Origin: an uncultured bacterium
Lineage (GTDB): Bacteria > Hydrothermota > Hydrothermia > B15-G9 > WFZT01
Length of the DNA stretch: 64,000 nt
Direction of reading: 5' to 3'
Assembly: GCA_964571845.1 (NCBI GenBank)
Contig: CAZNDM010000087.1
Coordinates: forward strand, 16,376-80,375
Below the pieces are notes generated by a model. It did no database searches. It was not told the DNA's origin and saw only the letters and a program-made list of their open reading frames with translations. Made by a program: the position numbers and the translations under genes. Each line of letters starts with the position of its first letter. The first letter of the stretch is position 1. Positions 3,667 through 63,854 of the stretch are shown piece by piece.

Positions 3667-5502
3667 TTAAGCCCACTTTTCTATGAGCTCCTGATACTTC
3701 TCCCAGGGATACACATCCAGCGCCTTTATCCACTTTGATAATTTCTCAACTCTCGCCTTTGGATCATCCGGGATCTGTAACGGTCTGCCTCGACAGTCAA
3801 TGATCAGTCCGACAACTCCTCCCTCAACCTCCACTTCGTGAACCTTTCCTTTACCGGCACCTGCATCAAAATTCTTTGAAGGCTCAATTATCGCCTTTGC
3901 CTTCTCTCCTATGCCCAGCGGGACGCGCACAAGATCGCCAAAGTTAACTGTGAGCTTTTTCCTCTCTCCTCTTGGCATCTCAAGCTGAATTTTCACACAG
4001 GGTTTGCCCTCTTTATCCACACCCTTGGGTGCAATTGAGCTACCGAGTCTGATGAGACAGTCACGATCAAACACCTCTGTCGCCGCCTCCTCGTGTACGG
4101 TCGAGAGGACACCGAGATGCGGCATCATGAAAATAGAGTCAACAGTGAGCATGGTAACACCTTCGGGCTGGAAGGCATCGAGCATCATCAAAGCCGCCTG
4201 CTGACGGCGTGGAGCGTGGGACAATACCCCTCCAGAACCAATGATTAGTGCAAGTGTCATCATGTTTACCAGCGTCTCTCCAGTCATGGTCTGGGCAAAG
4301 GCATCACTTATTGTCCTCTGCTGCTGGACTCCTTTGAGTCCCACTGCCATTGCCTTGTGGTGCTGGAAAGCAAGTCTCAAAGCCTCTCTCGCAATTGCCT
4401 GCTCAATTATCAGCTCCTCCAGTGTCTGCGGGATCGTCGTGGGCCTGATCATCTTATTCCTTATCCTGTTCCTAAGGTCCGACTCCTCGATTTTAAATGG
4501 CACCCAACGCAGAATGTTTTTAATGCCCGCCTCCACCATGACGTTGGATATGGAGTAACTCATCCCCAGGTTGGCTGAAACTGTTCTGTTAAAGACCCCC
4601 TGAAAAACGGAGAATACATCTGTGGTTGCGCCGCCTATGTCAACGCCGAGAACCTCGATGTTGTTCTTGCGGGCAACCTTCTCAACGAGGAGCCCCACAG
4701 CTCCAGGTGTGGGCATTATTGGAACATCCGTCCAGCTCATGAGCTTCTTGTATCCAGGAGCATGCTGCATTACATGCTCCATAAAAAGTTCATGGATCTT
4801 ATCCCTTGCTGGACGGAGATTTTCTCTTTCAAGAACAGGTCTAATATTATCGACAATGTAAAGGGCAACTTTGTCTCCGAGAATCTTCTTTATATCCTCT
4901 CGTGCATCTTTGTTACCAGCATAAATGACAGGGAGCTTGTAGCCAACGCCAAATCTTGGTCTTGGCTCAGCTGCGGCAATCAGCTCGGCGAGCTCAATGA
5001 CATGCTTTTTCGTACCGCCATCAACACCACCGGCGAGGAGAATCATGTCGGGTCTCAGTCTTCTAATCAGTTCTACCCTCTCGTGTGGCATTCTGCCATC
5101 ATTGGAGGCAATAACTTCCATAACGATAGCGCCGGCGCCGAGAGCTGCCCTTGCCGCACTCTCAGCTGTCATGCTCTTCACCACACCAGCAACGAGCATC
5201 TGCAAGCCACCACCTGCTGAAGATGTGGAAACATAGGCATCCACACCTTCCTGCTCCTTCGCCGGCTTCAATATTTTCTCACCCTCAAGAATCTTTATCC
5301 CAGTGAGCTCCTCCACTTCCCTGAATGCATTCAGAACTCCGCGGGTAACATCCTCAAACGGCGCCTCCACCGTCGTCGGCGCCTCACCCCTCGCAATTAA
5401 CCTGTAACTCTCATCCTTCTTGCCAATTAAAATTGCCTTTGTCGTGGTACTACCACAGTCAGTTGCAATTACCCTCTTTAAAATCTCAATTTCAGCAGCC
5501 AT
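3667..5502 (-). CDS. ASKHA-superfamily ATPase, GlmL/MutL (PF13941)-like, related to EutA and DdrA B12-enzyme reactivases
   Basis: 611 aa. Two phosphate-binding motifs duplicated across the protein (DCGSTTTKAIL near the N-terminus and VDIGGATTDVFSV in the second half) plus LLAGGVDGG. The ATG at 5500-5502 is verified and has an AGGAGG ribosome-binding site. Confidence 0.5.
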   Translation of the reverse strand: MAAEIEILKRVIATDCGSTTTKAILIGKKDESYRLIARGEAPTTVEAPFEDVTRGVLNAFREVEELTGIKILEGEKILKPAKEQEGVDAYVSTSSAGGGLQMLVAGVVKSMTAESAARAALGAGAIVMEVIASNDGRMPHERVELIRRLRPDMILLAGGVDGGTKKHVIELAELIAAAEPRPRFGVGYKLPVIYAGNKDAREDIKKILGDKVALYIVDNIRPVLERENLRPARDKIHELFMEHVMQHAPGYKKLMSWTDVPIMPTPGAVGLLVEKVARKNNIEVLGVDIGGATTDVFSVFQGVFNRTVSANLGMSYSISNVMVEAGIKNILRWVPFKIEESDLRNRIRNKMIRPTTIPQTLEELIIEQAIAREALRLAFQHHKAMAVGLKGVQQQRTISDAFAQTMTGETLVNMMTLALIIGSGGVLSHAPRRQQAALMMLDAFQPEGVTMLTVDSIFMMPHLGVLSTVHEEAATEVFDRDCLIRLGSSIAPKGVDKEGKPCVKIQLEMPRGERKKLTVNFGDLVRVPLGIGEKAKAIIEPSKNFDAGAGKGKVHEVEVEGGVVGLIIDCRGRPLQIPDDPKARVEKLSKWIKALDVYPWEKYQELIEKWA

Positions 5503-11822: not shown

Positions 11823-11827
11823 GGTAT

Positions 11828-11870
11828 GGTGTGGGCACGCCGGAGGCGCGCCTCCGGCGTGCCCACACCA
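11828..11870. terminator. Perfect GC-rich palindrome with a 20-bp stem, probably a U-tract-less or bidirectional terminator
   Basis: tggtgtgggcacgccggaggcgcgcctccggcgtgcccacacca. It is followed by an A-run on the plus strand, not a T-run, and lies between two plus-strand genes. Confidence 0.45.
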
Positions 11871-11907
11871 TTGTAAAAAAATCCTCACTTACCGTAAAAT
11901 TTCCACC

Positions 11908-36416: not shown

Positions 36417-36446
36417 CTTTATCCCCTTCCGCTTTGCGGGAGGAGA
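36417..36446. repeat. Copy D of the GC-rich hairpin repeat family (CCTTCCGC, loop TTT, GCGGGAGG)
   Basis: ctttatccccttccgctttgcgggaggag. It shares tttatcccct(c/t)ccgc with copy B and ccgctttgcgg with the hairpin at 56190-56212. Confidence 0.5.
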
Positions 36447-36588
36447 TGATGAAGATCTTTATACCTCTTCAAGGCATAAAGAGGAATAGGTGGGGCAGTG
36501 CAAAACATTGTGGAGGTTGAAATCCCATTTGTATTTTCTCAAAGGAATCAATTGACCTGTTCAGGGAAAATGAGTTAGAATAAATCTG

Positions 36589-40537: not shown

Positions 40538-40982
40538 AAGAACAATTCACCTATACCATAAATGACAGGGGAACGGCTCAAGATTAAGAAAACTCAATGA
40601 TGGTTCTCTTCCTTTGATCTGCTCATTCCCGGAACGGGAACCGATGCTTAAAGACTTTTCATTTTACCTGAAAAGCGGGAAATAGACTCTACTCACGATT
40701 TCACAAACCTCGCTCACGCTCTGATACTGAAATCCATAGAGGTTGCAAAAGGGCTCCAACTCCTACTTACTTTGAAATATTTGTAGGAAATCCCCAGTTG
40801 AGATCATCCGTAAAATGCTATGGGGAAAGGAGGGATTGAAATTTTTTTATTTTCACATCGAAGTGAAATGGCATTGTGTAAGAGGCTCCATTAATCTCCG
40901 TCCCCGCTCATGTAAATGTTGTGGCGGAGGATAAAGGTGAAAGCAAAAGTCAGATTTGACGGGGAAGCAATGAGTGCCTTTT

Positions 40983-41026
40983 CACCCTCTCCTCAATCCT
41001 TTCCCCGCGCCGGGAGGGGAGGTTGT
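40983..41026. repeat. Copy A of the GC-rich hairpin repeat family
   Basis: caccctctcctcaatcctttccccgcgccgggaggggaggttgt. The 16-mer cgggaggggaggttgt is identical to copy B at 56015-56030. Confidence 0.5.
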
Positions 41027-41270
41027 CGATACACTTTGCAGTCAAAGTACAACAAAAAAATTCTTCTCCCACTTTGTGGTTAAAGCGATTGCCTGCTCCA
41101 AAGAGGGAGAAAACCGCAGGTGGCTGAAAGTGACGGAAGAATTGTGAGTGAGTCATGTAAACCTTCCGATACAACAGGATTGAAATTGTAGGTGAATTTC
41201 CGTGAGCAGAAAGTGAAAAATAAGTTTGTAAATAAAAAATACTTAATTTTCAACACCATCAGTAAGGGGG

Positions 41271-41299
41271 TTGACAGTGCGAGGCCTCCAATTTAGAAT
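41271..41299 (+). promoter_or_regulatory. Sigma-70-like promoter TTGACA, 17-nt spacer, TAGAAT, for the peroxiredoxin gene
   Basis: TTGACA at 41271-41276, a 17-nt spacer, TAGAAT at 41294-41299. The AGGAGG ribosome-binding site is at 41325-41330 and the ATG at 41338. Confidence 0.5.
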
Positions 41300-41337
41300 A
41301 ATTCCAGATTAAAAAACATTAAAAAGGAGGTTGTAAA

Positions 41338-42001: not shown

Positions 42002-42040
42002 GGGGGGGGCGGGGCGCGCGGCACGCGCGCCCCGCCCCCC
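42002..42040. terminator. Long perfect GC hairpin (stem about 18 bp, 3-nt loop) downstream of the peroxiredoxin gene, with no U-tract
   Basis: ggggggggcggggcgcgcg gca cgcgcgccccgcccccc. It lies 20 nt after the stop codon and no T-run follows it on the plus strand. Confidence 0.4.
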
Positions 42041-53261: not shown

Positions 53262-55412
53262 ATGTGGCGTAAGTTGTTGGTAGTAACACTTGTGCTGGCA
53301 GTTGCCGGCATAAGTAAAGCAGAAGTAAAGAGTGTAAAAAGGGCAGTAATAACAAGCGCCAGAAGTGCTGACAACTGGACACCAGGGAGCCATGGAGTAC
53401 TACCTGAGGGTCAGGCTAAAGGTGACACACTTTATTACTATACCTCTGTTGATAACGACGCAATTGGATTAACAAATGGTGGGACATACCAGGCAGCAAT
53501 TAAGCTCACCCCAACAGAGCTCGGTCAGTATGGAGGGTGGTCAGTAACACAGGTTCTCTTTTATCATCACGAGTCAGGTACACATTCAGGACAGGTAATT
53601 GTTTATGCCGCAGGTACAGATACAACGCCAGGCGACATTCTTGCAACAGCGCCATACACGGCAACTGGTAACGGGTGGGTCGTTGTGGACCTCCCGGTGC
53701 CTGGTGTTATGATTGATCCTGCAAGTGACCTCTGGATCGCTGTCGAGGTAACTCACGCTCAGGGCGAATACCCGATCTCAGTTGACGCTGGACCAGCAGT
53801 TGCTGGCAAGGGCGACTGGGTCTATGCCCCGGGCGCCATTCCGTGGGCAGAACTCATTGATTATGGTTTAAACTACAACTGGAATATTGCAGCAGTCGTC
53901 GAGCAGGCAGGCGATTCTCTCGATCCTCTACCCCCAACAGATCTTACAGCTTACTCTGACTACACAATGCCCACATCCATGGCTGTCTCCTGGACAGATC
54001 CTTCACACTACTTCGGTGGAGACACTTTAACTGACTTCTATATCGAGATCTGGGTTGCCGGTGGAAAAGACACGACATTTGCTGACTCAGTACCAGCAGG
54101 CACGCAGGCTGACACTATCTCTGGACTGACAGACGGCACCCTCTACACAATTCTCTTAAGAGCCGTCGATGCCAACGATTCAGCCAGCCCATTTGTTAGC
54201 ACAACATGGTATGCTGGCGGTTCACCATATCCCGCACCCCCGCAGAATCTCGTTGCAAATGTTGTTGATGAAAGCCATGTCGAATTAACATGGATTAACC
54301 CTGCAACCCAGGCTGATGGCACACCACTCGATGACCTTGCAGGTGTCAATATCTATGTTGACGGTTCCCTTGCATATACCCATCCCACGACAGCAGTGGG
54401 TATGCCCGAAGTTGACACAATAGAGGTTGTACCCGGAAGTCACAATATTTATGTAACCGCCTATGACAACGAGACACCGGTCCATGAGTCCGATCCTTCC
54501 AACCAGGTCCATGTGGTCACCAATGTTCACGCAGGGGGACCTGATGGATATGGATATATTTTCAGAGATTCGGATTATCCCGGTGGCCCAACATTCAACT
54601 GGATTGACATCACACAGGTGGGAACACCCCATTCACTTGGTGATGACGATAATGTCCTTGTTCAGCTCCCGGCTCCTTTCCCCTTCTACGGCCAGAATCT
54701 CACCCAGCTCTACATCGTGTCTAATGGATTTTTATCCACGGACAACACTACTGAGTTCAGCAATGATTCTCTACCAACGGATGACCCAGTAAACCTGATT
54801 GCTCCTTTCTGGGATGATTTGAATCCATCTTCTGGCGGAATGATTTATTCATACCACGATACCACAAATAATGCCTTCATAGTGGAATGGTATCAGGTAC
54901 CTCATTATGGTAGTGGTGGTCCTTATACCTTTGAAGTGATCCTTTACTTCAACACAGGTGACATCCTCTGTCAGTACCTCGATCTTGATGAGGGACGCGT
55001 AAACTCTGCTACCATAGGAATTCAGGCAAATCAGGGTGCAAATAACTATTATCTCCTCTATACATACAATGGAAATCCTCTTGAGCCCCATGACAGTCTT
55101 GCTCTCCTCTTTACCTATCAGACGAGTGTCGGCGAGGACAACAATGTGGGTAAGTACATGCTGATGGGTACGGCAACAAATCCTGTGAGAGGATTTTCAA
55201 CAATAACATTCGCCGTTCCCAGGTCTGGAAATGTGAATCTTTCACTTTACGACATCATGGGTAGAAAGGTAAAAGACATTTTCAGCGGCAGAGTGAACGC
55301 AGGTAAGCATACAGTGAGATTTGACGCAACCGGTCTTGCAGGCGGAGTTTACTTTGTGAAGATGGTGGCTGGAGATTACACAGGTGTGGCAAAGGTTCTT
55401 GTTGTGAAGTAA
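53262..55412 (+). CDS. Secreted T9SS cargo protein with fibronectin-III-like domains and a T9SS C-terminal sorting domain
   Basis: 716 aa. Signal peptide LVVTLVLAVAGISKA. FN3-like segments (PPTDLTAY...WTDP; PAPPQNLVANVVDESHVELTWINP). The C-terminal sorting domain is NVNLSLYDIMGRKVKDIFSG...GGVYFVKMVAGDYTGVAKVLVVK. Codon usage is biased towards A-ending codons. Confidence 0.65.
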   Translation: MWRKLLVVTLVLAVAGISKAEVKSVKRAVITSARSADNWTPGSHGVLPEGQAKGDTLYYYTSVDNDAIGLTNGGTYQAAIKLTPTELGQYGGWSVTQVLFYHHESGTHSGQVIVYAAGTDTTPGDILATAPYTATGNGWVVVDLPVPGVMIDPASDLWIAVEVTHAQGEYPISVDAGPAVAGKGDWVYAPGAIPWAELIDYGLNYNWNIAAVVEQAGDSLDPLPPTDLTAYSDYTMPTSMAVSWTDPSHYFGGDTLTDFYIEIWVAGGKDTTFADSVPAGTQADTISGLTDGTLYTILLRAVDANDSASPFVSTTWYAGGSPYPAPPQNLVANVVDESHVELTWINPATQADGTPLDDLAGVNIYVDGSLAYTHPTTAVGMPEVDTIEVVPGSHNIYVTAYDNETPVHESDPSNQVHVVTNVHAGGPDGYGYIFRDSDYPGGPTFNWIDITQVGTPHSLGDDDNVLVQLPAPFPFYGQNLTQLYIVSNGFLSTDNTTEFSNDSLPTDDPVNLIAPFWDDLNPSSGGMIYSYHDTTNNAFIVEWYQVPHYGSGGPYTFEVILYFNTGDILCQYLDLDEGRVNSATIGIQANQGANNYYLLYTYNGNPLEPHDSLALLFTYQTSVGEDNNVGKYMLMGTATNPVRGFSTITFAVPRSGNVNLSLYDIMGRKVKDIFSGRVNAGKHTVRFDATGLAGGVYFVKMVAGDYTGVAKVLVVK

Positions 55413-55438
55413 GGGAAGTAGAAATTAAAGAAAATAAA

Positions 55439-55480
55439 GGGGGGCCGCGCCCGTACGGGCGCGGCCCCCCTTATTTTTTA
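55439..55480 (+). terminator. Rho-independent terminator: a 15-bp GC stem followed by a T-tract
   Basis: ggggggccgcgcccg ta cgggcgcggcccccc, then ttatttttta. It lies 27 nt after the stop of the 53262..55412 gene. Confidence 0.75.
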
Positions 55481-55987
55481 CACCCTTCCAAATCCATTTC
55501 TTACACTACTCGCAAATTTGAATTTGAAAAACGTCTTCTACTTTCATATGGTGAAATCTCACAAAGGCAGTAATAAAGCTGTCCCATAAAATTGCTCTGA
55601 ATGTAAGGGCAGATTTTTGACTTCCTCCCCACAGTAGCACAGGGAAAATCCTTACCATTTCCCTTGCACAAGAGGGGTATCCGGCGGAAGTTTCCACTGC
55701 CTATTCCGCAAACACATGTCCATGAGGGCTTCTACAATTCTCCCTCCCATAAACGGGAGATGGCAGGTGGATATTTCCATAAAGCAGTATTGGGTGGATA
55801 CCCACTCCTTACATCAGTCTCTTTAATGGGTGAGGAGGGGGTTCGAAAAAGCAATGTGATTTTTAACCTCACCCCGCAGTGTGTTAGCATTGTGGGGTGT
55901 TTTCCCAATGACCTTCTTCCTCACAAAGTTGGAAAGAACTGAGGAGGGGGAAAAATTATCGGAAAAAGCGGTGAATGTTTTTTTTCT

Positions 55988-56031
55988 GCCCTCCCCTTTA
56001 TCCCCTCCCGCAAAACGGGAGGGGAGGTTGT
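55988..56031. repeat. Copy B of the GC-rich hairpin repeat family: a perfect 10-bp stem TCCCCTCCCG, loop CAAAA, CGGGAGGGGA
   Basis: gccctcccctttatcccctcccgcaaaacgggaggggaggttgt. Confidence 0.55.
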
Positions 56032-56189
56032 GGGTGGACTCCCGCAAGACGGGCGGCGGCTGGAAGTGTCCTCATGCAGAGTGGTGGAGGTTTGGATGGA
56101 TTCTCTGACACATAGTTAGAGGTTGTAGGTAATCCCTTTTACTCGTGGGAAGTTAATCTTTCCGAATTTGCATGAGGGTAATGCAACCT

Positions 56190-56212
56190 CCCACGCCGCT
56201 TTGCGGCGTGGG
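56190..56212. repeat. Related GC hairpin CCCACGCCGC, loop TTT, GCGGCGTGGG (10-bp stem) that shares ccgctttgcgg with copy D
   Basis: cccacgccgctttgcggcgtggg. Confidence 0.5.
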
Positions 56213-56267
56213 GAAGGATTAAGGAGAGGGCAGAATGGGCCCAGGGAAAAGCAGGAGAGCTCTCTTC

Positions 56268-56333
56268 GCCCTCCCCTTTGTCCCCCCGAAAGCGGGAGGA
56301 GAGTTGAAAGCATCCCTCCCGCAGGCGGGGAGG
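56268..56333. repeat. Copy C of the hairpin repeat family, followed by a second hairpin CCCTCCCGC-ag-GCGGGGAGG
   Basis: gccctcccctttgtccccccgaaagcgggaggagagttgaaagcatccctcccgcaggcggggagg. It shares gccctccccttt(a/g)tcccc with copy B. Confidence 0.5.
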
Positions 56334-56624
56334 CAGCTGAAAGCGTTCCCTCTCATATAACAGTAGGGAAAGTTGAGTGTAATCTTTCCCACAAAATGGG
56401 ATTTCGAAATCAGGAGGGGAAATAAGGAATTTTTTTCCAGAGTGAAAGCGAAAATGATCAAAATATTTTTCGAACAGTCTCTTTGATGTACGGTGAAGGG
56501 AAATGCCACAATGCAGGGCGTTTCAGATGGGAAATTTTATAGACCCCCTTACTTCCAGCTGACTTAATATCACTTCCACAGTTCGTGCCACATCCATTAT
56601 AAAATTCCCAAAAAGGAGGTTGCC

Positions 56625-56999
56625 ATGCTCGTGAAAGATCTTAAATCCTGCCCCCAATTTGTTGCCGGTGATAGATCTTTGATCAGAGAAGTTCTTCACC
56701 CCAAGAACGACGGAATTGAATCCGGATTCAGTCTCGCACATGCAACAGTGAAAAAAGGAGGAAAGACTGTTCCCCACAGACTTAAAAAGAGCGTTGAAGT
56801 GTACTACATTCTGCAGGGAGAGGGACTCATGCACATAAACAACGAGGTCAAAATTGTGAGAGAAAATCAAGCCGTTTTCATACCACCCAATAGTCTTCAG
56901 TGGATTGAAAATACTGGCAATAAGGATCTTGTGTTCCTCTGTGTTGTAAGTCCCCCATGGTCTGAAGAGGACGAGGAAGTATTAGAAGGTGAGATCTAA
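56625..56999 (+). CDS. Cupin-domain protein
   Basis: 124 aa. Cupin motifs (H-rich G(X)5HXH-like region, ...VYYILQGEG...VFIPPNSLQWIEN). An AGGAGG ribosome-binding site lies 6 nt upstream. Confidence 0.6.
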   Translation: MLVKDLKSCPQFVAGDRSLIREVLHPKNDGIESGFSLAHATVKKGGKTVPHRLKKSVEVYYILQGEGLMHINNEVKIVRENQAVFIPPNSLQWIENTGNKDLVFLCVVSPPWSEEDEEVLEGEI

Positions 57000-57709
57000 A
57001 GTTCGTATGTAACCCGATTGTTCTCTGTCTCCATTACTTCAATTTTCTTTACCTGAAACTCCTCGCCCAGGATTTTTGCGATATGGAGTGCAAGATACTC
57101 ACTTGTGGAAAAGGGCAAAACCGCATCGAGGTCTTTGAAATTTAGCTCGTTGAGCAATTCTCTTATCTTTTGAAAGTCTGCCCTCCCTTTTAACCAGATT
57201 GTTATGGAGTAATCATGGCCATGCTTTTCCTTTCCACAGATGCCATATACATCGCTACTCTTTACTCTCTCTTCTGGCAACCTGTGAGACGCAGAAATCC
57301 TGTGAGTAAAACCACTTAACACATCATCTCTGGTACAGACTGCAAACTCGTCCTCTCCGGTTTTAACGAGAACAGATGATATTCCCGGTAGTTTTTTAGA
57401 TGCCTCGCTGAATATGTACATTGCTATATTTTCGAGTGTGGGAAGTTTTTCCTTGAATTCATCAAGATCGTTCAGACATTTGTGATCAAGCCGGTCAACT
57501 ACAGGTGCGACTATTTCTTTCAGTTTCTCAAGATTGATAACCATTCCCGTCTCAGGATTTACCTCACCCTCGACTGTCACAAAGACTTCAAAGTTGTGCC
57601 CGTGGGGATTTACCGATTTTCCAAATACTTCTTTGTTTTTATCTTCAGTCCAGTTCCTGTTTACAAGGTAATGACACGCAGAGAACCTGAACCTTCTCGT
57701 TACCTTCAT
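56996..57709 (-). CDS. Tandem-domain 6-pyruvoyl-tetrahydropterin synthase / QueD-like protein (two T-fold PTPS domains)
   Basis: 237 aa. Domain 1 has FSACHYL...NPHGHNF. Domain 2 has ISASHRL...KHGHDY. Each half therefore carries the Cys/His...HGH zinc and catalytic motif. Confidence 0.6.
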   Translation of the reverse strand: MKVTRRFRFSACHYLVNRNWTEDKNKEVFGKSVNPHGHNFEVFVTVEGEVNPETGMVINLEKLKEIVAPVVDRLDHKCLNDLDEFKEKLPTLENIAMYIFSEASKKLPGISSVLVKTGEDEFAVCTRDDVLSGFTHRISASHRLPEERVKSSDVYGICGKEKHGHDYSITIWLKGRADFQKIRELLNELNFKDLDAVLPFSTSEYLALHIAKILGEEFQVKKIEVMETENNRVTYEL

Positions 57710-58059
57710 TTTACGAAAAACCTCACCGGCGGGCTGATCCCCCAGTTATCCCATTCGTCTCTGGCTCGAATAACGAGGGTGTGAGGAATTGTATCAGATA
57801 ACTCCCCGGTTGAAAAAAATAAACTATCTGTATCATGTGTGGTAAGAATGGACTGCCCATCGAGAATCAGCTGAATTTCTTTTATTCTGGAAGAGTCCTT
57901 GATAGAAGTTTTCACCTTTATTGTGTCACCCGAGAGTGTATCTCCATTTTCCGGATAGATTATCTTAACGATCGGTGGAGAAATATCCGGCTTGCCTGGT
58001 GGAGGAGCCTTGTGTCCGCACGCAGTAATAAGAATTGCAATTATGGCAAACTTCTTCAA
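57706..58059 (-). CDS. Small lipoprotein with an Ig-like (BIG-type) domain
   Basis: 117 aa. Lipobox ILITAC. The P-rich linker and beta-rich domain are my reading from the sequence. Confidence 0.4.
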   Translation of the reverse strand: MKKFAIIAILITACGHKAPPPGKPDISPPIVKIIYPENGDTLSGDTIKVKTSIKDSSRIKEIQLILDGQSILTTHDTDSLFFSTGELSDTIPHTLVIRARDEWDNWGISPPVRFFVK

Positions 58060-59549
58060 TATAATTTCACTCCTTTAACACCCGGAAAGTAATGGATGAG
58101 TATGTCTTTCATTTTAAATCCTTTTTCAGCCAGAATTCCAGCTCCAACCTGGCACATTCCGACACCGTGACCGGAGCCTCCTCCAAAGATAATGACCTTC
58201 TCTATATCCCCCTTTTCGTTTCTCTCGTAATCAACATAAAAGAGAGAGCTTTTGAGACCACCAAACAGTCTCCTTATCCTGTACTCACCATTTATCACAA
58301 TGTTCTTTTTTGACCCCGAGATCAAAAGTTCTGTGATCCTCCCTGACACTCCTCTTGTTAACGGTACTATTCCTTTTAGCTTTCCGATCTTTTCTCCTGT
58401 AAATTTTTTTACAAGTCTCTCAACATCCCTTCTCCCAAAAGCTACCTTCCACCTGAAATTTTTCCTGACATACCTCAGTATCACTGGATTTTCAACATTT
58501 TTACAGATTAGAGAATCGGGCGGGTATTTAATAAAAAGTCTGATTTCTACCGGATCCCGAAGATCAAGGTCAAAATTACCTTCTTTGACGCCCTTAAGGT
58601 AGGGAATCTCCGGGGTATTCCAGATGCAGGAAATGCTTTCTGTGTGTCCACCGCATGTTGAATGATAGAAGACTTTAGCAATTTTGTTCTGATAGAAAAG
58701 AACAATACCGCGTGTGGCATCAACAGCACTGTCTGAGATCGGAATCCTCTTGGAGGAAAACGCCTGTGATATGACAGAGGCAACAAAGTCATAAGGCTGG
58801 TATCTGAAGGACTTGCCAAGATGAGCAAGGGTAAAGGTTCTTGCCACCACAGCCTGGGCTTTTAAAGCTTCGAATGGGAATGCCGGTGGCATCTCCGCAG
58901 GTAAAACATGCCTTATGTAATCTTCAAGATCCTGTACGAGAACAACCACACCTTCTGCACCTGTGTTGACTGTAAAAACTACCTTTCCCGTTATACTGTC
59001 ACCCCTGCGAATGTAAAAGTAGCCCCATTCAGGCTGGAGAGTGAGGGAGTCATCCGACTCGACAATCCTGTTCCCCTTTGAATCCAGAAGTTCAAATTTC
59101 CCTCTCTGTGGCACATAGGGCTCCCTGTAGATATTTCCTTGAATACTTTCCTTTCTGTAAGGACCCTCAAGAATGTAGAAATCTCTATTGTCAACTGTAA
59201 ATCCGTTGAAGTGGATGATAGCCCCAACATCAACATAAAAAAGTCCTGCTGGAACATTTTTGATCGGTTCATCTGACCTGTCCACGATTTTGTAATAAAG
59301 GAACCTGGCTTTCTGAGGGTTTTTGAGACGGATTGTGTATCCTCCCGATGAAAGCCTGATCGTATCATTTACAGTGAAGCTCCCTTTAATTCCAAATGTC
59401 AGGGAGTTTTTGAAAGTTAAGACTTTAACCCTGATTTTAACAGGGTGTCTTAGAACCTTTACCCGTCTTACAGGTGGAATAGGGGGAGGGGGTTTTGTGA
59501 TCCTGTGGCAGGAGGAGAGCAACAGGAAAAATATTACAAATTTTCTCAT
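58056..59549 (-). CDS. SpoIID/LytB-domain protein
   Basis: 497 aa. SpoIID signature KAQAVVARTF...YHSTCGGHTE. Confidence 0.75.
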   Translation of the reverse strand: MRKFVIFFLLLSSCHRITKPPPPIPPVRRVKVLRHPVKIRVKVLTFKNSLTFGIKGSFTVNDTIRLSSGGYTIRLKNPQKARFLYYKIVDRSDEPIKNVPAGLFYVDVGAIIHFNGFTVDNRDFYILEGPYRKESIQGNIYREPYVPQRGKFELLDSKGNRIVESDDSLTLQPEWGYFYIRRGDSITGKVVFTVNTGAEGVVVLVQDLEDYIRHVLPAEMPPAFPFEALKAQAVVARTFTLAHLGKSFRYQPYDFVASVISQAFSSKRIPISDSAVDATRGIVLFYQNKIAKVFYHSTCGGHTESISCIWNTPEIPYLKGVKEGNFDLDLRDPVEIRLFIKYPPDSLICKNVENPVILRYVRKNFRWKVAFGRRDVERLVKKFTGEKIGKLKGIVPLTRGVSGRITELLISGSKKNIVINGEYRIRRLFGGLKSSLFYVDYERNEKGDIEKVIIFGGGSGHGVGMCQVGAGILAEKGFKMKDILIHYFPGVKGVKLY

Positions 59550-60412
59550 CTCGTGAGGATATTCAATCTGTCTCTTGCTCTCGTTGCATACGGTGATCTT
59601 TTGTAAAATACAATGAGTTTTTCGTATGTCTCAATAGCCTTGTCAAATTCTCCAATCTGCTCATACGATAGACCGAGATAAAAAAGGGCATCATCCATTA
59701 TCGTGTAGGGCTTGTTAAAATCAAGCACCCTTTTGAAGTAAGCTATGGCTGAGTCATAGATTTCCGTTTCGTAGTACATCTTTCCGATCTGGAATAGCGA
59801 GTTTCCTACTATCCAGTCCCTTTCAACAAACTTTGGATCAGCAGAATTTATCACCTCAAGAACATCCTGGTATCGCCCAACTTCATAAAGGCATTTTGCA
59901 TATGGAGCTGCAACATCCTTCAGGTCACCGCCTCCAAGAGAGATGTAGTTCTCGTAGTTCTCAACCGCTCTTTTACAATCACCTTTTTTATAATAATAAT
60001 CGCCAAGAATTTTGAATCTATGACCAAGATTAAAAAGCGGGTCAAATTGGATAACCTTTTCAAGGGCATAAATAGCGAGTCTTTTTTCCCCTTTTGAATA
60101 AGCACTATCCGCAATCTCTATGAGGAGATCTATGTAGTTTTTGCGGTCTTTTCCATAAATATTTCCGTTCATTGAATATAGGGTTTTGAGCGCCTTTGGA
60201 TACTTCCCCCACGCAAAATATACCTTTGCAAGGAGAATTCGGTATTTTGGCGGCAATCCGGAAGTTTCCTCCTGCTCAAGTATCAATGCCTCTGCTTTTT
60301 TAAACTGCTTTTCCTTTATCAGCTCCTCAACTTTTGATTCAACTGACCCTCCGAAGTTGCACGACTGAGTGAGGAAAAATATGGCAAATAGCGTAATTAC
60401 CGTCTTTTTCAT
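59546..60412 (-). CDS. Tetratricopeptide-repeat lipoprotein/secreted protein
   Basis: 288 aa. Signal peptide with a Cys (LTQSC), then multiple TPR-like W-LG-Y-A-F-P repeats. Confidence 0.65.
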   Translation of the reverse strand: MKKTVITLFAIFFLTQSCNFGGSVESKVEELIKEKQFKKAEALILEQEETSGLPPKYRILLAKVYFAWGKYPKALKTLYSMNGNIYGKDRKNYIDLLIEIADSAYSKGEKRLAIYALEKVIQFDPLFNLGHRFKILGDYYYKKGDCKRAVENYENYISLGGGDLKDVAAPYAKCLYEVGRYQDVLEVINSADPKFVERDWIVGNSLFQIGKMYYETEIYDSAIAYFKRVLDFNKPYTIMDDALFYLGLSYEQIGEFDKAIETYEKLIVFYKRSPYATRARDRLNILTR

Positions 60413-60464
60413 GGATTTTATTATAATCTTTGACCTGCGTGAGTAAAAGTTTTAAATTTTTAGC

Positions 60465-61199
60465 ATGTGTGAGATGAAATTTGTTTCCGAAGGTCCATAT
60501 CTTGTCCTGTTTATACACGGATTTTTTGGCAGCATAGAAACTTTTCGCGAGCAGGGTGAATTTTTAAAAAAACACGGCTTTTCGTACGCCCTTGTAACTT
60601 ATCCATCCACGGAATTCACCTTTGAGGACTTCATTGACTGTGTTGTTGAAAAACTTTTAGACCGGGGAGTAGAGAAATTCTCCGTAGTGGGAACCTCAAT
60701 GGGTGGGTTCTGTGCCCAGCTGTTTGCTTCAAGGTACAACAACAGAATAGACTCTCTTGTGCTTACAAATACATTTTCATCAACTTCTTATTTTAGAAGA
60801 AAAAACAGGCTCATTACTGCAATCGCGCCACTATTACCGGAAAAAGCGATAAAGTTTTACTTAAAAAGTGTGGTAAAAAAAGAATACGGCGGCTACAAAC
60901 AGGTCGGGAAATTGTTCGAAATGGTTGATTCACTCACGAAAAAAGATGTCCTTGTGAGGGTCAAAGCCCTGATGTCAATTGAAAGCGTAAGTTTTGACAA
61001 AAAATTCCCCGTAGCAGTATTTGACTCTGCTGATGATGTTACAATTCCCGATTTTTTAAAGACTGAACTGAAGTTTACAGCACAGCCAGATTTTGAATAC
61101 ACATTCCCGGAGGGAGGACATTTCCCTTACATTTTCAGAAAAAACGAGTTTAATCAGATTTTACTTCAGTTTCTTAAGGATGTTTACGCCCTCGAATAA
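60465..61199 (+). CDS. Alpha/beta hydrolase
   Basis: 244 aa. HGFFGS near the N-terminus and the nucleophile elbow GTSMGG. The start is uncertain, as there is no clear ribosome-binding site. Confidence 0.55.
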   Translation: MCEMKFVSEGPYLVLFIHGFFGSIETFREQGEFLKKHGFSYALVTYPSTEFTFEDFIDCVVEKLLDRGVEKFSVVGTSMGGFCAQLFASRYNNRIDSLVLTNTFSSTSYFRRKNRLITAIAPLLPEKAIKFYLKSVVKKEYGGYKQVGKLFEMVDSLTKKDVLVRVKALMSIESVSFDKKFPVAVFDSADDVTIPDFLKTELKFTAQPDFEYTFPEGGHFPYIFRKNEFNQILLQFLKDVYALE

Positions 61200-61704
61200 G
61201 ATTTCGCACCTTTTCAATCATCTTTCTATGCGTTGAAAAAGGTATTTCAGGCAGAGAATCGAGCGGGAAAAATCTGACATCAGCAGCATCGTCTCCAGCC
61301 TTTGGTTCTCCGGCAATCCACCTGAGCCTGTAACCAATGCTTATTATCCATCTGTACTTCAAACTTGACTGGCCATATATCCCGACAATTTCTTCAACTT
61401 CACCCTTTATTCCTGTCTCCTCAAGGAGTTCTCTTGTGGCAGTTTCTTCTGGCTGTTCTCCAATTTCCATAAAACCGGATGGAAGTGCCCACATACCTTC
61501 AGCTGGCGGCACACCCCTTTTCACGAGAAGGATCTCATTTTTATCATTTAAAACCACGCACGCAACCACGGGCACAGGATTTTCCCAGATTATCATGTCA
61601 CATGTGGGGCAATACAGCCTTTTCTCACCGTCGTGCAACTTCTTCTCAAGTCTGGTGCCACACAGAGGGCAATATTTGAACGGATAAAAGGGCTTTATTT
61701 CCAT
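61174..61704 (-). CDS. NUDIX hydrolase with an N-terminal C4 zinc ribbon
   Basis: Zinc ribbon CPLCGTRL...CPTCD, and Nudix box GMWALPSGFMEIGEQPEETATRELLEETGI. The ATG at 61702-61704 is verified and overlaps the sppA stop (TGATG). Confidence 0.75.
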   Translation of the reverse strand: MEIKPFYPFKYCPLCGTRLEKKLHDGEKRLYCPTCDMIIWENPVPVVACVVLNDKNEILLVKRGVPPAEGMWALPSGFMEIGEQPEETATRELLEETGIKGEVEEIVGIYGQSSLKYRWIISIGYRLRWIAGEPKAGDDAADVRFFPLDSLPEIPFSTHRKMIEKVRNLIRGRKHP

Positions 61705-63854
61705 CAATTTAGCTCCAGTTTGTATGGCATCATGTAAAGATACGGTGCCGTCAGTAAATTCATGTAAGTGCTTATACCGGCTCCAGGCAAATTAAAGGAA
61801 AACCTTCGCTCCGGATAAACTTTTACTTCAAAATCACCTTTAATACCCGCAAGCTTCGCCGCCTCCCTTATAGCCTCTGATAAACCACCAATTCTGTCAA
61901 CAAGCCCGATCTCCTTCGCTCTTCGCCCGCTCCAGATCCTTCCCCTTCCGATCACATTGACTGAATCCTTTGATATTCCTCTACACTCTGAAACACGAGA
62001 GATAAACATATCGTATCCCCATTGAAGCTCCTTTTCGAGGATTTCCCAGCCACGCGGAGAAAATTTCCTGAATAGAGAGTATTCATCTGCAAGTTTATTG
62101 GTCTTAAGAATCTTTGTGTTAACACCTATTTTCTCTGTAAACTCCTTAAAAACGAGCTTGCCACCGAGAATACCGATAGAGCCGGTTATTGTATTATTGT
62201 CTGCATAGATGAGGTTTCCAGGCGCTGCAATGTAGTACCCCCCTGAAGCAGCAAGCCATCCCATTGACACAACGAGTGGCTTCTCTTTTCTCAGTTTCAT
62301 CAGCTCCTGCCAGATCATCTCCGACGCAATTGCATCACCACCGCCTGAATTGATTCGAAATACCACTGCCTTGACATGCCTGTTTTCCCGAAGTTCCCTT
62401 ATTACTTTCACCATTGTAAGTGATCCGATGGTTTTACCTAAAATGCCATCTGAACTTTCGCCATTTACAATTGAACCTTCAGCTGTCAAAACGGCGATCA
62501 CAGGTTTCACCCACCCCTCGTCAACATATCTTCTTGTCCCGTATTCGGCAAACTCCTGTTCTTCGAGGTCAGTCTGATGTAGTATGCTATCAACGAGACC
62601 GTACTTCAGAGCCTGTTCAGAATTGAAATACCCAATTTCATCCATGAGCCTTCTCAGGCTGTCTTCAGAGATTTTCCTCGATTTAGACACCCGGGCAAGG
62701 AAATCGCTGAGAAAATCTTTGAGTAACTCTTCTGTCTGGATACTGTCGTATTCGGAAATATTCGATCTTGTGAAAGGCTCTACAGCACTTTTGTACTCTT
62801 TGATGTGGTACATTTCTGCCTCGACACCGAGTTTTTTCATGAGGTCAAGAAAATAAAACTTTGTGGCAACGAATCCGGGGATCAAAACTCCGCCCATCGT
62901 CTGAATAAACACCTTACTCCCCGCTGAAGCAAGGTAGTAAGTAATTGGATTGTAAATACTTGAAAAGAAATAGACTTTTTTCCCGCGAAATTTGAGTCTT
63001 TCGACCTCTTTTCTCAACTCCTCAGCCTGATTGTATGTGAGCTTCGGATTTTCGAGCTTTATAAGAATCTCTTTTACAAACACATCCTTTTCCAGACTTT
63101 CAAACTGCCTGAGCAGGTCAAAGAAACTTGTCTGACGTCTGAGAAAACGCATTTTGCCCACCTCAGGGTATGATCCTTTTAAGGTTAATTCAACCTTTCT
63201 CTTTTTCGGAAGTGAAATCCTCGAAGGATAGGTCTCCGATGATACGATAAGGCTGTAATCCGACGAATTTTCTCGACCTCTGTAACCAAGACCAAAATTG
63301 GAGGAGAAAACTCTCAGTCCTATACCCAGTTCCCCGGATCTGTTCATATCAAACGCAAACTGCATTCCCTTTATAGGTTCGAAAATCAATCCGCCGCCAT
63401 AATCTTCAATGGAATCAGAGTAAGAAATGTTTGCATAAATTCTGGCAATGCCTCCGAGAAGTCTCACACCTGTGCCACCTCTGACGACATAATCGTCTTC
63501 ACTTGCCCTTATGTATGTGTTGAATGTCAGAATGGTCCCGATTCTCTTGATCACGCCTGCCCTGAATGCGTAATTATCGCCTCTGGATAATCCAAATCCG
63601 ATAAAAGTGCCGTCAGCTATTTTAAAACCCGTGGCGTAGTGGAAAGTTTTTGTACTGTCAGTCAGAGAAACACCGATTCCGTAAAACCCGGCAAGCAGGC
63701 TGATATCTTTTTCCGCAGAACGAGATTCGAGGAGTAACTCAAATCCCGGCGTAAATCCTAAAGACGCAGGATTACCTGCTACACCTTCAGCCCTGAAGGG
63801 AAAAGCAGAGTTCCCATAAAAGCTTATCATTAGAATCATGCTAAAAATATTCAT
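61704..63854 (-). CDS. sppA: Signal peptide peptidase SppA, 67K type (tandem S49 domains), with an extra N-terminal domain of about 220 aa
   Basis: 716 aa. Signal peptide. Two S49 ClpP-like domains (…VVFRINSGGGDAIASEMIWQEL…SMGWLAASGGYYIA…). The ATG at 63852-63854 is verified, with a GGAGGTG ribosome-binding site. Confidence 0.75.
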   Translation of the reverse strand: MNIFSMILMISFYGNSAFPFRAEGVAGNPASLGFTPGFELLLESRSAEKDISLLAGFYGIGVSLTDSTKTFHYATGFKIADGTFIGFGLSRGDNYAFRAGVIKRIGTILTFNTYIRASEDDYVVRGGTGVRLLGGIARIYANISYSDSIEDYGGGLIFEPIKGMQFAFDMNRSGELGIGLRVFSSNFGLGYRGRENSSDYSLIVSSETYPSRISLPKKRKVELTLKGSYPEVGKMRFLRRQTSFFDLLRQFESLEKDVFVKEILIKLENPKLTYNQAEELRKEVERLKFRGKKVYFFSSIYNPITYYLASAGSKVFIQTMGGVLIPGFVATKFYFLDLMKKLGVEAEMYHIKEYKSAVEPFTRSNISEYDSIQTEELLKDFLSDFLARVSKSRKISEDSLRRLMDEIGYFNSEQALKYGLVDSILHQTDLEEQEFAEYGTRRYVDEGWVKPVIAVLTAEGSIVNGESSDGILGKTIGSLTMVKVIRELRENRHVKAVVFRINSGGGDAIASEMIWQELMKLRKEKPLVVSMGWLAASGGYYIAAPGNLIYADNNTITGSIGILGGKLVFKEFTEKIGVNTKILKTNKLADEYSLFRKFSPRGWEILEKELQWGYDMFISRVSECRGISKDSVNVIGRGRIWSGRRAKEIGLVDRIGGLSEAIREAAKLAGIKGDFEVKVYPERRFSFNLPGAGISTYMNLLTAPYLYMMPYKLELN

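Follow-up and report, generated by a model that had tools for sequence, protein, structure and literature searches.

The region of interest occupies positions 55481-56624 of a 64-kb window (the whole 64,000-nucleotide stretch of DNA analyzed here) and has the flanks previously claimed for it: a strong terminator on the left and a cupin gene on the right. The terminator hairpin, which has T/A runs on either side, forms the left boundary and lies outside the repeat family described below; the cupin gene (56625-56999) is preceded by a ribosome-binding site, AAGGAGG, at 56613-56619. It had also been stated that all other spacers fall below 150 nt, which is incorrect: 40538-41337 is an 800-nt gene-free gap and there are further gaps of ~230 and 375 nt. 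The principal parts of the locus are as follows (labels such as L004 denote loci in related genomes and metagenome contigs).

55437..55472, plus strand: intrinsic terminator hairpin of the upstream T9SS-tail gene (16 bp, 14 G-C)
55481..55928, no strand assigned: left part, 448 nt, without detectable homologue elsewhere (0 blastn matches; z -3.8)
55929..56075, plus strand: composite repeat unit copy 1, about 145 nt (nhmmer E 5e-38; blastn to copy 2, 40.9 kb and L004)
56086..56235, plus strand: inter-unit family segment (blastn to L034, 71% over 152 nt, and to L045 and L051)
56208..56352, plus strand: composite repeat unit copy 2 (nhmmer E 2e-33; blastn; alignment with copy 1)
56404..56490, plus strand: conserved 'tail' module (...GGGGAAATAAGG...GAAAATGATCAAAATATTTTTCGAAC; blastn 75-77% to L045, L051 and L073)
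56491..56624, plus strand: locus-specific DNA, presumed cupin promoter and 5'UTR, without homologue by blastn

The absence of a credible ORF, noted from the sequence at the outset, was borne out. The longest ORFs (96, 92, 85 and 75 aa) overlap one another and lie on both strands, and translated similarity revealed no protein-coding gene: eight small ORFs gave no Pfam match at E≤1, the 75-aa ORF had no homologue among 5.8 billion proteins, and the sole match of the 92-aa ORF among 1.84 billion representatives was artefactual, being to a 5x tandem-repeat protein. Gene callers placed small ORFs within the region in the sister assembly. A weak TTGATG-17-CACAAT at 56483-56512 is the putative promoter of the cupin gene.

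Roughly half of the region (55929-56490) consists of repeat-family DNA that is found again at other loci and in related genomes; by blastn this part matches arrays in L034, L037, L045, L051, L067-L069 and L073. Copy 1 (55929-56075) contains, in order, a purine tract, TGAGGAGGGGG (55940-55950), a spacer, a triplex motif (see below), a linker and a hairpin, H2. Copy 2 starts 280 nt after the start of copy 1, and the inter-unit segment holds a mini-hairpin, GCAT-GAGGGTA-ATGC (56170-56184), and a purine tract, GGATTAAGGAGAGGGCAGAA, at 56216-56235. The combination of linker and H2 recurs in L045, L051, L069 and L073, the tail module closes the composite element in other genomes too, and modules are paired head-to-head (inverted) in L045, L051, L067 and L073. 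The left part of the region probably consists of old, decayed repeat modules, as suggested by short similarities: an H0-like remnant (55622-55644), an H0-like hairpin (55870-55899), a hairpin at 55744-55759 preceded by CATGAGGG (compare 56166-56212) and a linker-like TGGGTGGATACCC at 55791-55803.

Relatives of these repeats had been suspected at 36.4 and 41.0 kb, and both are real.

36421..36447, plus strand: single family hairpin, ATCCCCTTCCGC-TTT-GCGGGAGGAGAT, without recognisable third strand
40921..41062, plus strand: paralogous composite unit (nhmmer E 3e-27), upstream of the peroxiredoxin promoter

All three loci in the 64 kb are intergenic, and in the metagenome contigs examined copies of the motif lie between longer ORFs. 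A further composite unit is present in the related genome L004. A near-identical 40-nt core occurs in contigs spanning 39-67% GC; only five matches were found among 2.9 million viral contigs, and a blastn search of plasmids with a canonical copy returned none, possibly owing to the low-complexity filter. Searches of the literature for the motif strings found only unrelated papers, in which the strings occur in synthetic DNA-nanotechnology oligonucleotides or a primer.

At least six G/C-rich stem-loops of a single form had been reported from the region. The six that were located all exist, with slightly shifted coordinates, but the literal form, CCCTCCCG-loop-CGGGAGG, fits one only (56003-56023; one site read on both strands, against none in 100 shuffles), the others being variants. 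The hairpins and the linker are given below.

55744-55759: hairpin CTCCC/GGGAG
56001-56025: hairpin TCCCCTCCCG/CGGGAGGGGA, 10 bp
56026-56038, plus strand: conserved linker GGTTGTGGGTGGA, adjoining hairpin H2
56039-56055, plus strand: hairpin H2, CTCCCG-CAAGA-CGGGCG
56190-56212, plus strand: hairpin CCCACGCCGC-TTT-GCGGCGTGGG, 10 bp
56281-56302: hairpin within the degenerate triplex motif TM2
56313..56335, plus strand: hairpin H2', TCCCTCCCGC-AGG-CGGGGAGGCA, then GCTGAAAGC

G/C-rich hairpins with at least seven Watson-Crick pairs number 15 in the 64 kb, of which four fall within this 1.1 kb, together with the terminator. A third strand is recognisable beside two or three of the roughly eight hairpins in the region, and the remainder are plain palindromes. 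The conserved linker GGTTGTGGGTGGA beside plain palindromes is a feature that the triplex model leaves unexplained. Resemblances of the linker to DnaA boxes (the idea of an oriC), resemblance to integron attC sites and a G-quadruplex formed from G-tract plus linker were considered by eye and rejected, as was a third-strand role for the G/T-rich linker, whose register does not fit.

The conserved core of the family reads 5'-CCCTCCCCT-TTA-TCCCCTCCC-loop-GGGAGGGGA-3', that is, three 9-nt blocks on one strand. Block 1 is the mirror image of block 2, and block 3 is the Watson-Crick partner of block 2. Because block 1 mirrors block 2, it spells out the purine strand in Hoogsteen code (C for G, T for A); the conjunction of a mirror block and a Watson-Crick partner is the predicted signature of an intrastrand triple helix. 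Judged on its letters, then, the repeat core of the region can fold into a putative three-stranded helix. Three such motifs lie in the window.

40985-41020, plus strand: triplex motif CCCTCTCCT-CAA-TCCTTTCCC-CGCGCC-GGGAGGGGA (scores 9, with two U.G, and 8)
55989..56025, plus strand: perfect triplex motif TM1 (9/9 and 9/9)
56269..56302, plus strand: degenerate triplex motif TM2, comprising CCCTCCCCT, TTG, TCCCCCCG, AAAG and CGGGAGGAGA (scores 7/8)

TM1 is composed of the third strand CCCTCCCCT (55989-55997), the linker TTA, the pyrimidine strand TCCCCTCCC (56001-56009), the loop GCAAAAC and the purine strand GGGAGGGGA (56017-56025). Its minus strand reads Y-R-R (a purine motif): TCCCCTCCC ... 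GGGAGGGGA-TAA-AGGGGAGGG. At the position of TM2 the sister strain has the canonical TCCCCTCCC. No such motif arose in 40 dinucleotide shuffles of the 64-kb window. Across the family the second loop is of 3 nt (TTA, TTG, CAA or TAA), and the hairpin loop is of 5-7 nt, or of 3-4 nt after extra G-C pairs; in H0 modules there is a 17-18-nt insert, itself an extension of the stem.

Variant stems are informative as to which symmetry is maintained. The variant CCCCCTCCT / TCCTCCCCC / GGGGGAGGA of L051 and L073 agrees with the mirror rule at 9/9 positions (8/9 in L045 and L067) and with the direct rule at 5/9, and the variant CTCCTCTCC / CCTCTCCTC / GAGGAGAGG of L057 gives the same 9/9 versus 5/9. The stems GGGGGAGGA, GAGGAGAGG and GAGGGGAGG are each accompanied by a matching third strand, which amounts to three-way covariation. 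Overall the mirror rule (at least 8/9) fits 12 non-core cases in which the direct rule reaches at most 6/9, and the reverse was found in none. The A-R relation among the metagenome matches is partly imposed by the search pattern; the variant stems, which that pattern did not select, kept the mirror rule.

One earlier suggestion was that the region encodes structured RNAs. Here it received no support: there is no Rfam match, a relative lacks the sequence at the orthologous locus, and the sequence evolves faster than the genes on either side. With Rfam 15, counting covariance-model matches at or near the gathering score, the 64 kb yielded no match at the gathering threshold; at E≤10 the region gave only sub-threshold chance matches, and at E≤0.1 the 12 loci with canonical copies gave one tRNA and nothing else. 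ARAGORN detected no tRNA or tmRNA, and Tandem Repeats Finder no array in the region. Folding showed no preference for either strand (z -5.4 and -6.1). The folding tools model only Watson-Crick and G.U pairs, and an RNA gene is disfavored because the logic of the sequence is a mirror symmetry that goes beyond Watson-Crick pairing alone. A first model, in which a long Watson-Crick stem, P1 (GGATTAAGGAGGGGG / CCCTCCCCTCAATCC), was combined with a three-way junction, was abandoned since its A.C 'mismatches' are exactly those that mirror symmetry predicts; RNAalifold on four copies returned a weak structure that differs from this model.

Comparison with relatives places the region at a junction of rearrangement. 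The closest cupin homologues reside in other gene contexts and were thus of no use for synteny, so PTPS homologues were employed instead. In the relative L076 the order is T9SS - 186 nt - S49...PTPS - 158 nt - MMCoA: the same neighbors are separated by only 186 nt, with no gene, and 55481-56624 is absent. The seven-gene S49...PTPS block is inverted in the present genome relative to L076, a comparison that establishes opposite orientation and carries no polarity as to the ancestral order. Of the two inversion junctions here, one holds the 1.15 kb and the cupin gene, the other a 490-nt gap (L080, 9511-10000) containing decayed hairpin and tail modules. The second junction has no triplex motif, so a direct causal role in the inversion is not established.

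The repeats are also variable between close relatives. Identity to the sister strain is 97-98% in the region, as against 99.9-100% in the flanking genes; two contigs of the sister-strain assembly end inside the region, and numerous copies in metagenomes are located at the ends of contigs. At one promoter L004 has an element of ~330 nt that is missing from L007; the insertion is flanked by a 10-nt direct repeat, ATTGACTTAA (p about 0.03). The corresponding duplication of flanks around the region in the window is non-significant (p 0.07).

Together these analyses favor the view, already raised in the first-pass annotation, of a decayed element or rearrangement scar: repeats are dispersed, decayed copies lie on the left, and the cluster falls exactly at one junction of the seven-gene inversion. 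We consider it likely that the region is non-coding DNA made up of G/C-rich repeats from a dispersed, modular family, together with their decayed remnants, rather than a gene for a protein or a discrete RNA. The repeat cluster marks rearrangement and probably promotes it. The mirror-repeat (triple-helix) logic, which had escaped the earlier reader, would place the element in a known class: as in BoxC/PIT/TM elements there are three blocks, covariation, short loops, intergenic multi-copy occurrence and variability of the locus. During single-stranded phases – replication, transcription, or negative supercoiling upstream of an active promoter – hairpins and triplexes might fold in the transiently single-stranded DNA and cause polymerases to stall; stalling could in turn lead to template switching, duplication, gene conversion and recombination. 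By such a mechanism these spacers would grow into arrays and become hot spots of rearrangement. Any benefit to the host, for example insulation of the downstream promoter or buffering of supercoils, is speculative. Among the observations that count against this reading, repeats are co-oriented with the downstream gene in 8/9 loci of the lineage, a bias that a purely DNA-level selfish repeat does not predict. A regulatory platform, also proposed previously, is possible: most of the repeats point the same way as the downstream gene, and they precede its promoter.

The repeats may instead be non-autonomous transposable elements of the MITE or REPIN type, mobilized by a transposase encoded elsewhere, with hairpins as transposase-binding sites, an incidental triplex-like symmetry and repeated insertion into a permissive spacer. 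We regard this as a tentative alternative, and it is compatible with, not exclusive of, the dispersed-repeat explanation. In UOGL01 contigs both arms of a ~230-bp element contain the core, and this element has terminal inverted repeats (GTAACTAYTCAGCG) and is present in many near-identical copies; the L004 insertion is clean; two modules stand head-to-head in relatives, like a REPIN doublet; and GTTCGAAAAA (55841) and TTTTTCGAAC (56466) bracket the repeat part, adjoining CAGTCTCTTT[A/G]ATG direct repeats. However, no transposase was found adjoining any copy, and the boundaries are inconsistent, the left GTTCGAAAAA end being missing from L045, L051 and L073. Moreover, the 10-nt inverted and 14-nt (13/14) direct repeats of the window are near chance (~0.6 and 0.1 expected in 1.1 kb), and the non-significant flank duplication and the scarcity of viral matches likewise tell against transposition. 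E. coli TMs, for their part, are unassociated with mobile elements (PMC4666352).

It is improbable that the repeats act at the level of RNA, transcribed with or ahead of the downstream gene. The pyrimidine-first strand would then form an RNA hairpin capped by a C+.G-C / U.A-U major-groove triple helix, with a regulatory or stabilizing role such as a pH- or temperature-sensitive switch, a nuclease block or an SD/anti-SD decoy. What speaks for this is orientation: the downstream gene has the pyrimidine-motif strand as its sense strand in eight of the nine determinable loci of the lineage (the three window loci, L004, L051, L068, which is upstream of a tRNA, L069 and L073; the exception is L045). 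Intrastrand triplexes of the pyrimidine motif are possible in RNA, those of the purine motif not (cited in PMC4666352), and the G-tract GGGGAGGTTG resembles the local RBS AAGGAGGTTG. On the same strand the non-Watson-Crick positions of the stems are more often U.G (10) than C.A (4), although this 10:4 asymmetry is non-significant, imperfect stems being few and non-family hairpins being included. At the prx, CMAS and SBP loci the repeats lie upstream of the predicted promoters (TTGACA-17-TAGAAT) and are therefore probably not part of these mRNAs; in other lineages (L040/49, L053, L043/56, L070) the opposite strand is sense, directly after stop codons. The lack of conservation at the orthologous locus, the divergence of the region relative to its flanking genes and the equality of fold z-scores on both strands also weigh against an RNA, and C+ runs are disfavored at neutral pH. 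A bolder version holds that strand-specific functional triple helices of RNA (or of transcription-coupled ssDNA) stand before genes as switches or barriers and have spread between phyla on small mobile carriers; we give this little credence. Were it true, the switch would respond to pH, Mg2+ or temperature, or the structure would be a barrier to nuclease or polymerase, and the 39-67% GC spread of the core and the 8/9 co-orientation would denote function, not selfish spread.

That a protein-coding gene was lost here after a rearrangement is very improbable: the region is gene-sized (1.15 kb), stands at a rearrangement junction and attracts ORF calls in the sister assembly, but eight of its small ORFs lack Pfam matches, the two compared with protein collections lack genuine homologues, half of it is identifiable as repeat DNA, and the relative has no gene between the same neighbors. 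A degenerate CRISPR-like array or other known repeat-spacer system has a negligible chance of being correct and is effectively refuted by spacing, for although the unit of hairpin plus linker (35-40 nt, partly with a GTTGAAAG-like end) bears a loose likeness to some CRISPR repeats, the units follow no regular period, being either directly adjacent, with no spacer, or 280 nt apart, no CRISPR-DR Rfam match covers them, and no cas genes are among the annotated neighbors.

Repeats with triplex potential of the BoxC/PIT/TM type have so far been characterized in Proteobacteria and noted in Cyanobacteria. The dispersed-repeat explanation would add an uncultivated WOR-3-like lineage and a variety of metagenomic genomes to the known range of this poorly understood class, with a stem sequence distinct from that of known members and equally conserved. 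It would be a further, independent case from nature of the reported association of motif and rearrangement, manifest as an inversion junction, insertion polymorphism, strain hypervariation and assembly breaks. It would also remove a false lead, since the longest 'empty' stretch of the window would then represent no large non-coding RNA and no lost gene. In practice, such repeats break up metagenome assemblies and give rise to spurious ORF calls.

The closest known system is the intrastrand triplex motif of E. coli (BoxC, PIT elements, TM_ECO), reportedly described by Hoyne and Maher in 2000 and 2002. Common to both are three consecutive 9-nt homopurine/homopyrimidine blocks on one strand, forming a hairpin and a mirror-image third strand; a G/C-rich composition in which a loop of 3 nt (TTA/TTG/TAA) joins the two like-strand blocks and the first loop is short; multi-copy occurrence, strictly intergenic and including inverted pairs; a stem sequence extraordinarily conserved across many genomes; and loci that are unusually rearranged or variable between close relatives. 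The E. coli TM has 9-nt stems and a 3-nt second loop (TTA), is strictly intergenic and occurs as tandem inverted copies (Holder et al. 2015, PMC4666352); its loci are far more rearranged between strains, and in vivo DMS footprinting of TM_ECO showed no stable triplex (PMC4666352). The minus-strand pyrimidine-purine-purine reading found here is the purine-motif arrangement of BoxC/PIT/TM_ECO, and TM_ECO-type copies directly adjoin the family core in L063 and L058.

The two are nonetheless different sequence families of the same class. The TM_ECO consensus is CCCTCNCCC-N3-6-GGGNGAGGG-N3-GGGNGAGGG (PMC4666352), which in its strict form the present repeats do not match: their stems are TCCCCTCCC / GGGAGGGGA / AGGGGAGGG, with A/T at other positions, versus GGGNGAGGG / GGGNGAGGG, and the strings TCCCCTCCC, GGGAGGGGA and AGGGGAGGG are absent from the text and two supplements of PMC4666352. 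The third strand here, unlike that of TM_ECO, is an exact mirror, so that purine and pyrimidine motifs are both formally possible. In addition, 2-7 additional Watson-Crick pairs often lengthen the first loop; the motif forms part of a ~145-280-nt composite unit with plain hairpins, the GGTTGTGGGTGGA linker and a conserved tail; the hosts are a WOR-3/Hydrothermota-like MAG and metagenome contigs of 39-67% GC rather than Proteobacteria; and there is an apparent orientation bias toward the downstream gene in this lineage, with none in E. coli.

With REP/BIME and REPIN-RAYT systems (PMC3116915, PMC3337134) the family has in common that its palindromes are short, G/C-rich, extragenic and numerous, that they form inverted doublets and cluster, with conserved linkers, into mosaic arrays, and that they are hot spots of variation. 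Its copies lack the GTAG/CTAG head, and no RAYT gene or transposase-sized recurrent neighbor was seen in the 64 kb and the fragments, among the proteins scanned. Mirror (triplex) symmetry is not a feature of REPs, and whereas REPs occur at operon 3' ends, the repeats of this lineage lie upstream of promoters.

MITEs with structured arms include Correia/NEMIS, ERIC and BOX elements. Like these, the present repeats are small, non-coding, dispersed and strongly folding, and may sit at promoters; the UOGL01 relative of the core is a textbook MITE with terminal inverted repeats. The copies in the window, in contrast, are mosaic and decayed, with neither consistent terminal inverted repeats nor demonstrated target duplications. 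H-DNA, finally, is formed by mirror-repeat polypurine.polypyrimidine tracts and is linked to recombination and genetic instability. The A-linker-B mirror repeat of the core is a sequence of the H-DNA type; however, H-DNA needs only a mirror repeat in duplex, whereas the core gains an inverted repeat from a third block on the same strand, the predicted hallmark of a single-strand (intrastrand) triplex.

The gene-free stretch at 55481-56624 (hereafter the region) is best read as a cluster of triplex-capable repeats of the BoxC/PIT/TM type, accompanied by further hairpins and by decayed copies. The region coincides with the junction of a rearrangement, belongs to an uncultivated bacterium that is WOR-3/Hydrothermota-like by its best protein hits, and is neither a known RNA nor a gene. 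The first-pass annotation had placed six stem-loops between a strong terminator and a cupin gene; these borders hold and all six stem-loops are present, at slightly shifted coordinates:

53262-55412, gene for a T9SS-sorted protein (fn3/NIDO/Por_Secre_tail, 716 aa), upstream neighbour of the region
55437-55472, its terminator hairpin (16-bp, G/C), with T/A runs at the flanks
55744-55759, stem-loop 1
56001-56025, stem-loop 2
56039-56055, stem-loop 3
56190-56212, stem-loop 4
56281-56302, stem-loop 5
56313-56335, stem-loop 6
56466-56475 (also 41240-41252, 36525-36540, and L076 3795-3805 and 10775-10785), A/T-rich ATATTTTTCGAAC(A)C-like segment
56625-56999, cupin gene (124 aa, good RBS), right border of the region

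The form claimed for all six, CCCTCCCG...CGGGAGG, is matched literally by one and not by the remaining ones. In the 64 kb, 15 G/C-rich hairpins have 7 or more Watson-Crick pairs; four of them fall within the 1.1-kb region, with the terminator besides. Two other G/C hairpins, perfect and very strong (21 and 17 bp), stand at the ends of genes (11826-11871 and 42004-42040) and are ordinary terminator-like structures outside the repeat family.

That the region lacks a credible ORF was confirmed: the longest (96, 92, 85 and 75 aa) overlap one another on both strands, and its small ORFs have no Pfam match at E<=1. The 75-aa ORF, which crosses the best hairpin, has no homologue in 5.8 billion proteins. 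For the 92-aa ORF in the left part a single match (E 4.8e-6) was obtained among 1.84 billion representatives; it was rejected as true homology because the target is a protein of five tandem repeats, which makes the match an artefact of summed weak matches. The statement that every other spacer stays below 150 nt is wrong: an 800-nt gene-free gap (40538-41337) lies upstream of a 1-Cys peroxiredoxin gene, and others reach ~230 and ~375 nt.

Sensitive blastn and an nhmmer profile revealed a ~145-nt unit with two copies in the region (55928-56075 and 56208-56352, at a distance of 280 nt), a third at 40921-41062 and a fragment at 36417-36456, in agreement with the earlier assignment of the hairpins to a family also present at 36.4 and 41.0 kb. 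The third copy, which includes a triplex motif at 40985-41020, lies inside the 800-nt gap and is followed by a clear TTGACA-17-TAGAAT promoter. A further copy precedes a CMAS-type methyltransferase gene in L004, a related genome of the same sample, and one metagenome scan, with a pattern derived from these copies, returned 43 loci. In eight of these, which come from this sample or related ones (L034, L037, L045, L051, L067-L069 and L073), the spacers between genes hold series of TCCCCTCCCG(Y)-loop-(R)CGGGAGGGGA hairpins connected by GGTTGTGGGTGGA linkers, and a recurrent composite element with terminal ...GAAATGATCACCGTAAAATATTTTTCGAAC. At L068 3192-3264, in a related contig, a hairpin array directly precedes the promoter and gene of a tRNA (anticodon CAT), so the repeats are not confined to spacers before protein genes.

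Matches to the fetched loci cover 55929-56490; the flanks, 55481-55928 and 56491-56624, match none of them. The simplest reading of the right flank is promoter and leader of the cupin gene. The left 448 nt show short similarities to repeat modules and are probably older, decayed copies. The A/T-rich segment recurs before several genes of the lineage, 8-20 nt (at times more) upstream of -35 boxes, and could be an UP-element or the site of a regulator instead of repeat DNA.

The core kept in all contexts is 5'-CCCTCCCCT-(YAA/TTA)-TCCCCTCCC-loop-GGGAGGGGA-GGTTG, and it is a triplex motif of three 9-nt blocks. The hairpin consists of blocks two (pyrimidine) and three (purine); block one complements nothing nearby and repeats block two in mirror image. 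Block one can also be derived from the purine strand by writing C for G and T for A without a change of 5'->3' direction, the code of a third strand of the parallel pyrimidine type (C+.G-C, T.A-T). The opposite strand, TCCCCTCCC-loop-GGGAGGGGA-TAA-AGGGGAGGG, reads as the antiparallel purine motif (G.G-C, A.A-T). Our first model, a long 'stem' of purine tract and block one, was abandoned; its systematic A.C mismatches arise because block one mirrors block two. With thresholds of at least 8/9 for Watson-Crick pairs (U.G included) and at least 8/9 for the third strand, a strict scan found two motifs in the window, 55989-56025 (perfect) and 40985-41020, and none in 40 dinucleotide shuffles; a relaxed scan added 56269-56302, where the sister strain is canonical.

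Since the metagenome pattern fixed blocks one and three, the true test lies in variants outside its selection. Variant hairpin modules (H0) that border the core of L051 and L073 have the other-strand sequence CCCCCTCCT-TAA-TCCTCCCCC-(stem extension)-GGGGGAGGA, and those of L045 and L067 give a mirror match of 8/9. L057 has CTCCTCTCC-CTAAC-CCTCTCCTC-...-GAGGAGAGG, and a further variant (L055, L057, L048) has CTCCCCTCC / CCTCCCCTC / GAGGGGAGG. In every variant the T/A positions shift jointly across all three blocks; 12 non-core cases obey the mirror rule without fitting a direct-repeat rule, and none the opposite.

A non-coding RNA had been proposed, but no Rfam 15 model reached its gathering threshold anywhere in the window, matches in the region were at chance level, and ARAGORN found nothing. 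The repeat part does fold far above shuffles (z -5.4 plus, -6.1 minus), but equally strong folding of both strands is expected of DNA palindromes. An RNA-level or regulatory role remains a minority reading: the pyrimidine-first strand is the downstream gene's sense strand at 8/9 loci of the lineage, yet recognisable promoters separate repeats from genes there, and in other lineages the opposite strand comes after stop codons. The wobble asymmetry in the stems (10 U.G vs 4 C.A) is too slight to favour either side.

Of the suggested RNA locus, rearrangement scar and regulatory platform, the scar is favoured; the locus is real, lies at a rearrangement junction and is neither a known RNA nor a gene. 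In a relative (L076/L075; 62-96% protein identity) the order is amidohydrolase, T9SS protein, 186 nt, a block of S49 peptidase, NUDIX, hydrolase, TPR, SpoIID, Big_7 and PTPS, then 158 nt and methylmalonyl-CoA mutase. In the window this seven-gene block (56996-63854) is inverted relative to that order. One junction is the region plus the cupin gene; the other, beyond 63855 (L080 9511-10000), is a 490-nt gap with divergent S49 / methylmalonyl-CoA mutase promoters and decayed hairpin and tail modules, in which the scan found no triplex motif. The relative's orthologous locus lacks the cupin gene, whose closest homologues (70-81% identity) have unrelated gene contexts; its acquisition or movement together with the rearrangement is therefore probable. 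The gene shares 4 nt with the convergent PTPS gene.

In a comparison with a near-identical sister strain, 2148/2151 positions of the T9SS gene and 1085/1085 of cupin-PTPS agree; the region shows 1019/1037 and 400/412, with repeat unit 2 the main site of changes. Two contigs of that strain's assembly, L001 and L003, stop within the region. They overlap by ~300 nt there (window 56213-56517) yet are unjoined and differ at several positions, which suggests repeat-induced assembly error or strain heterogeneity. In L004 (3277-3594) a ~330-nt composite element occupies the CMAS promoter, flanked by a 10-nt direct repeat, ATTGACTTAA, that includes the -35 box; the orthologous spacer (L007 3400-3503) lacks it. 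In the favoured mechanism, taken from the E. coli literature, single-stranded DNA at the locus would transiently fold into hairpin or triplex, the folded form would stall polymerases, and stalling would promote duplication, conversion and recombination.

The known class is that of Hoyne and Maher's potential intrastrand triplex (PIT) elements, which are the BoxC repeat of E. coli; Holder et al. 2015 (PMC4666352) studied this repeat as TM_ECO. The TM_ECO consensus reads CCCTCNCCC-N3-6-GGGNGAGGG-N3-GGGNGAGGG, with 9-nt stems and TTA or CCG as second loop; it is exclusively intergenic, without orientation bias, sometimes in inverted tandem pairs, and occurs 3610 times in 262 proteobacterial genomes (PMC4666352). 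Single-stranded TM_ECO DNA formed a triplex in vitro, DMS footprinting in vivo showed no stable triplex, neither promoter nor terminator activity had been found in earlier work, and rearrangement among E. coli strains was far higher at TM_ECO loci than at control spacers (PMC4666352). The window motif has identical geometry but a different stem sequence, and its strings are absent from the text and supplements of PMC4666352; the motif is therefore not TM_ECO itself but forms a sister family. The GC content of contigs with the core spans 39-67%. Those of one organism (UOGL01; L042, L046, L050, L054, L059, L060, L065, L072, L074) carry a ~230-bp MITE bounded by terminal inverted repeats GTAACTAYTCAGCG, with the core as one triplex motif in each arm; its copies are numerous and near-identical, and several lie where contigs end. 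In L063 (about 5087-5140) and L058, copies matching the TM_ECO consensus, CCCTCTCCC-N5-GGGAGAGGG-CTG-GGGTGAGGG, lie inverted and directly adjoin the window-type CCCTCCCCT core.
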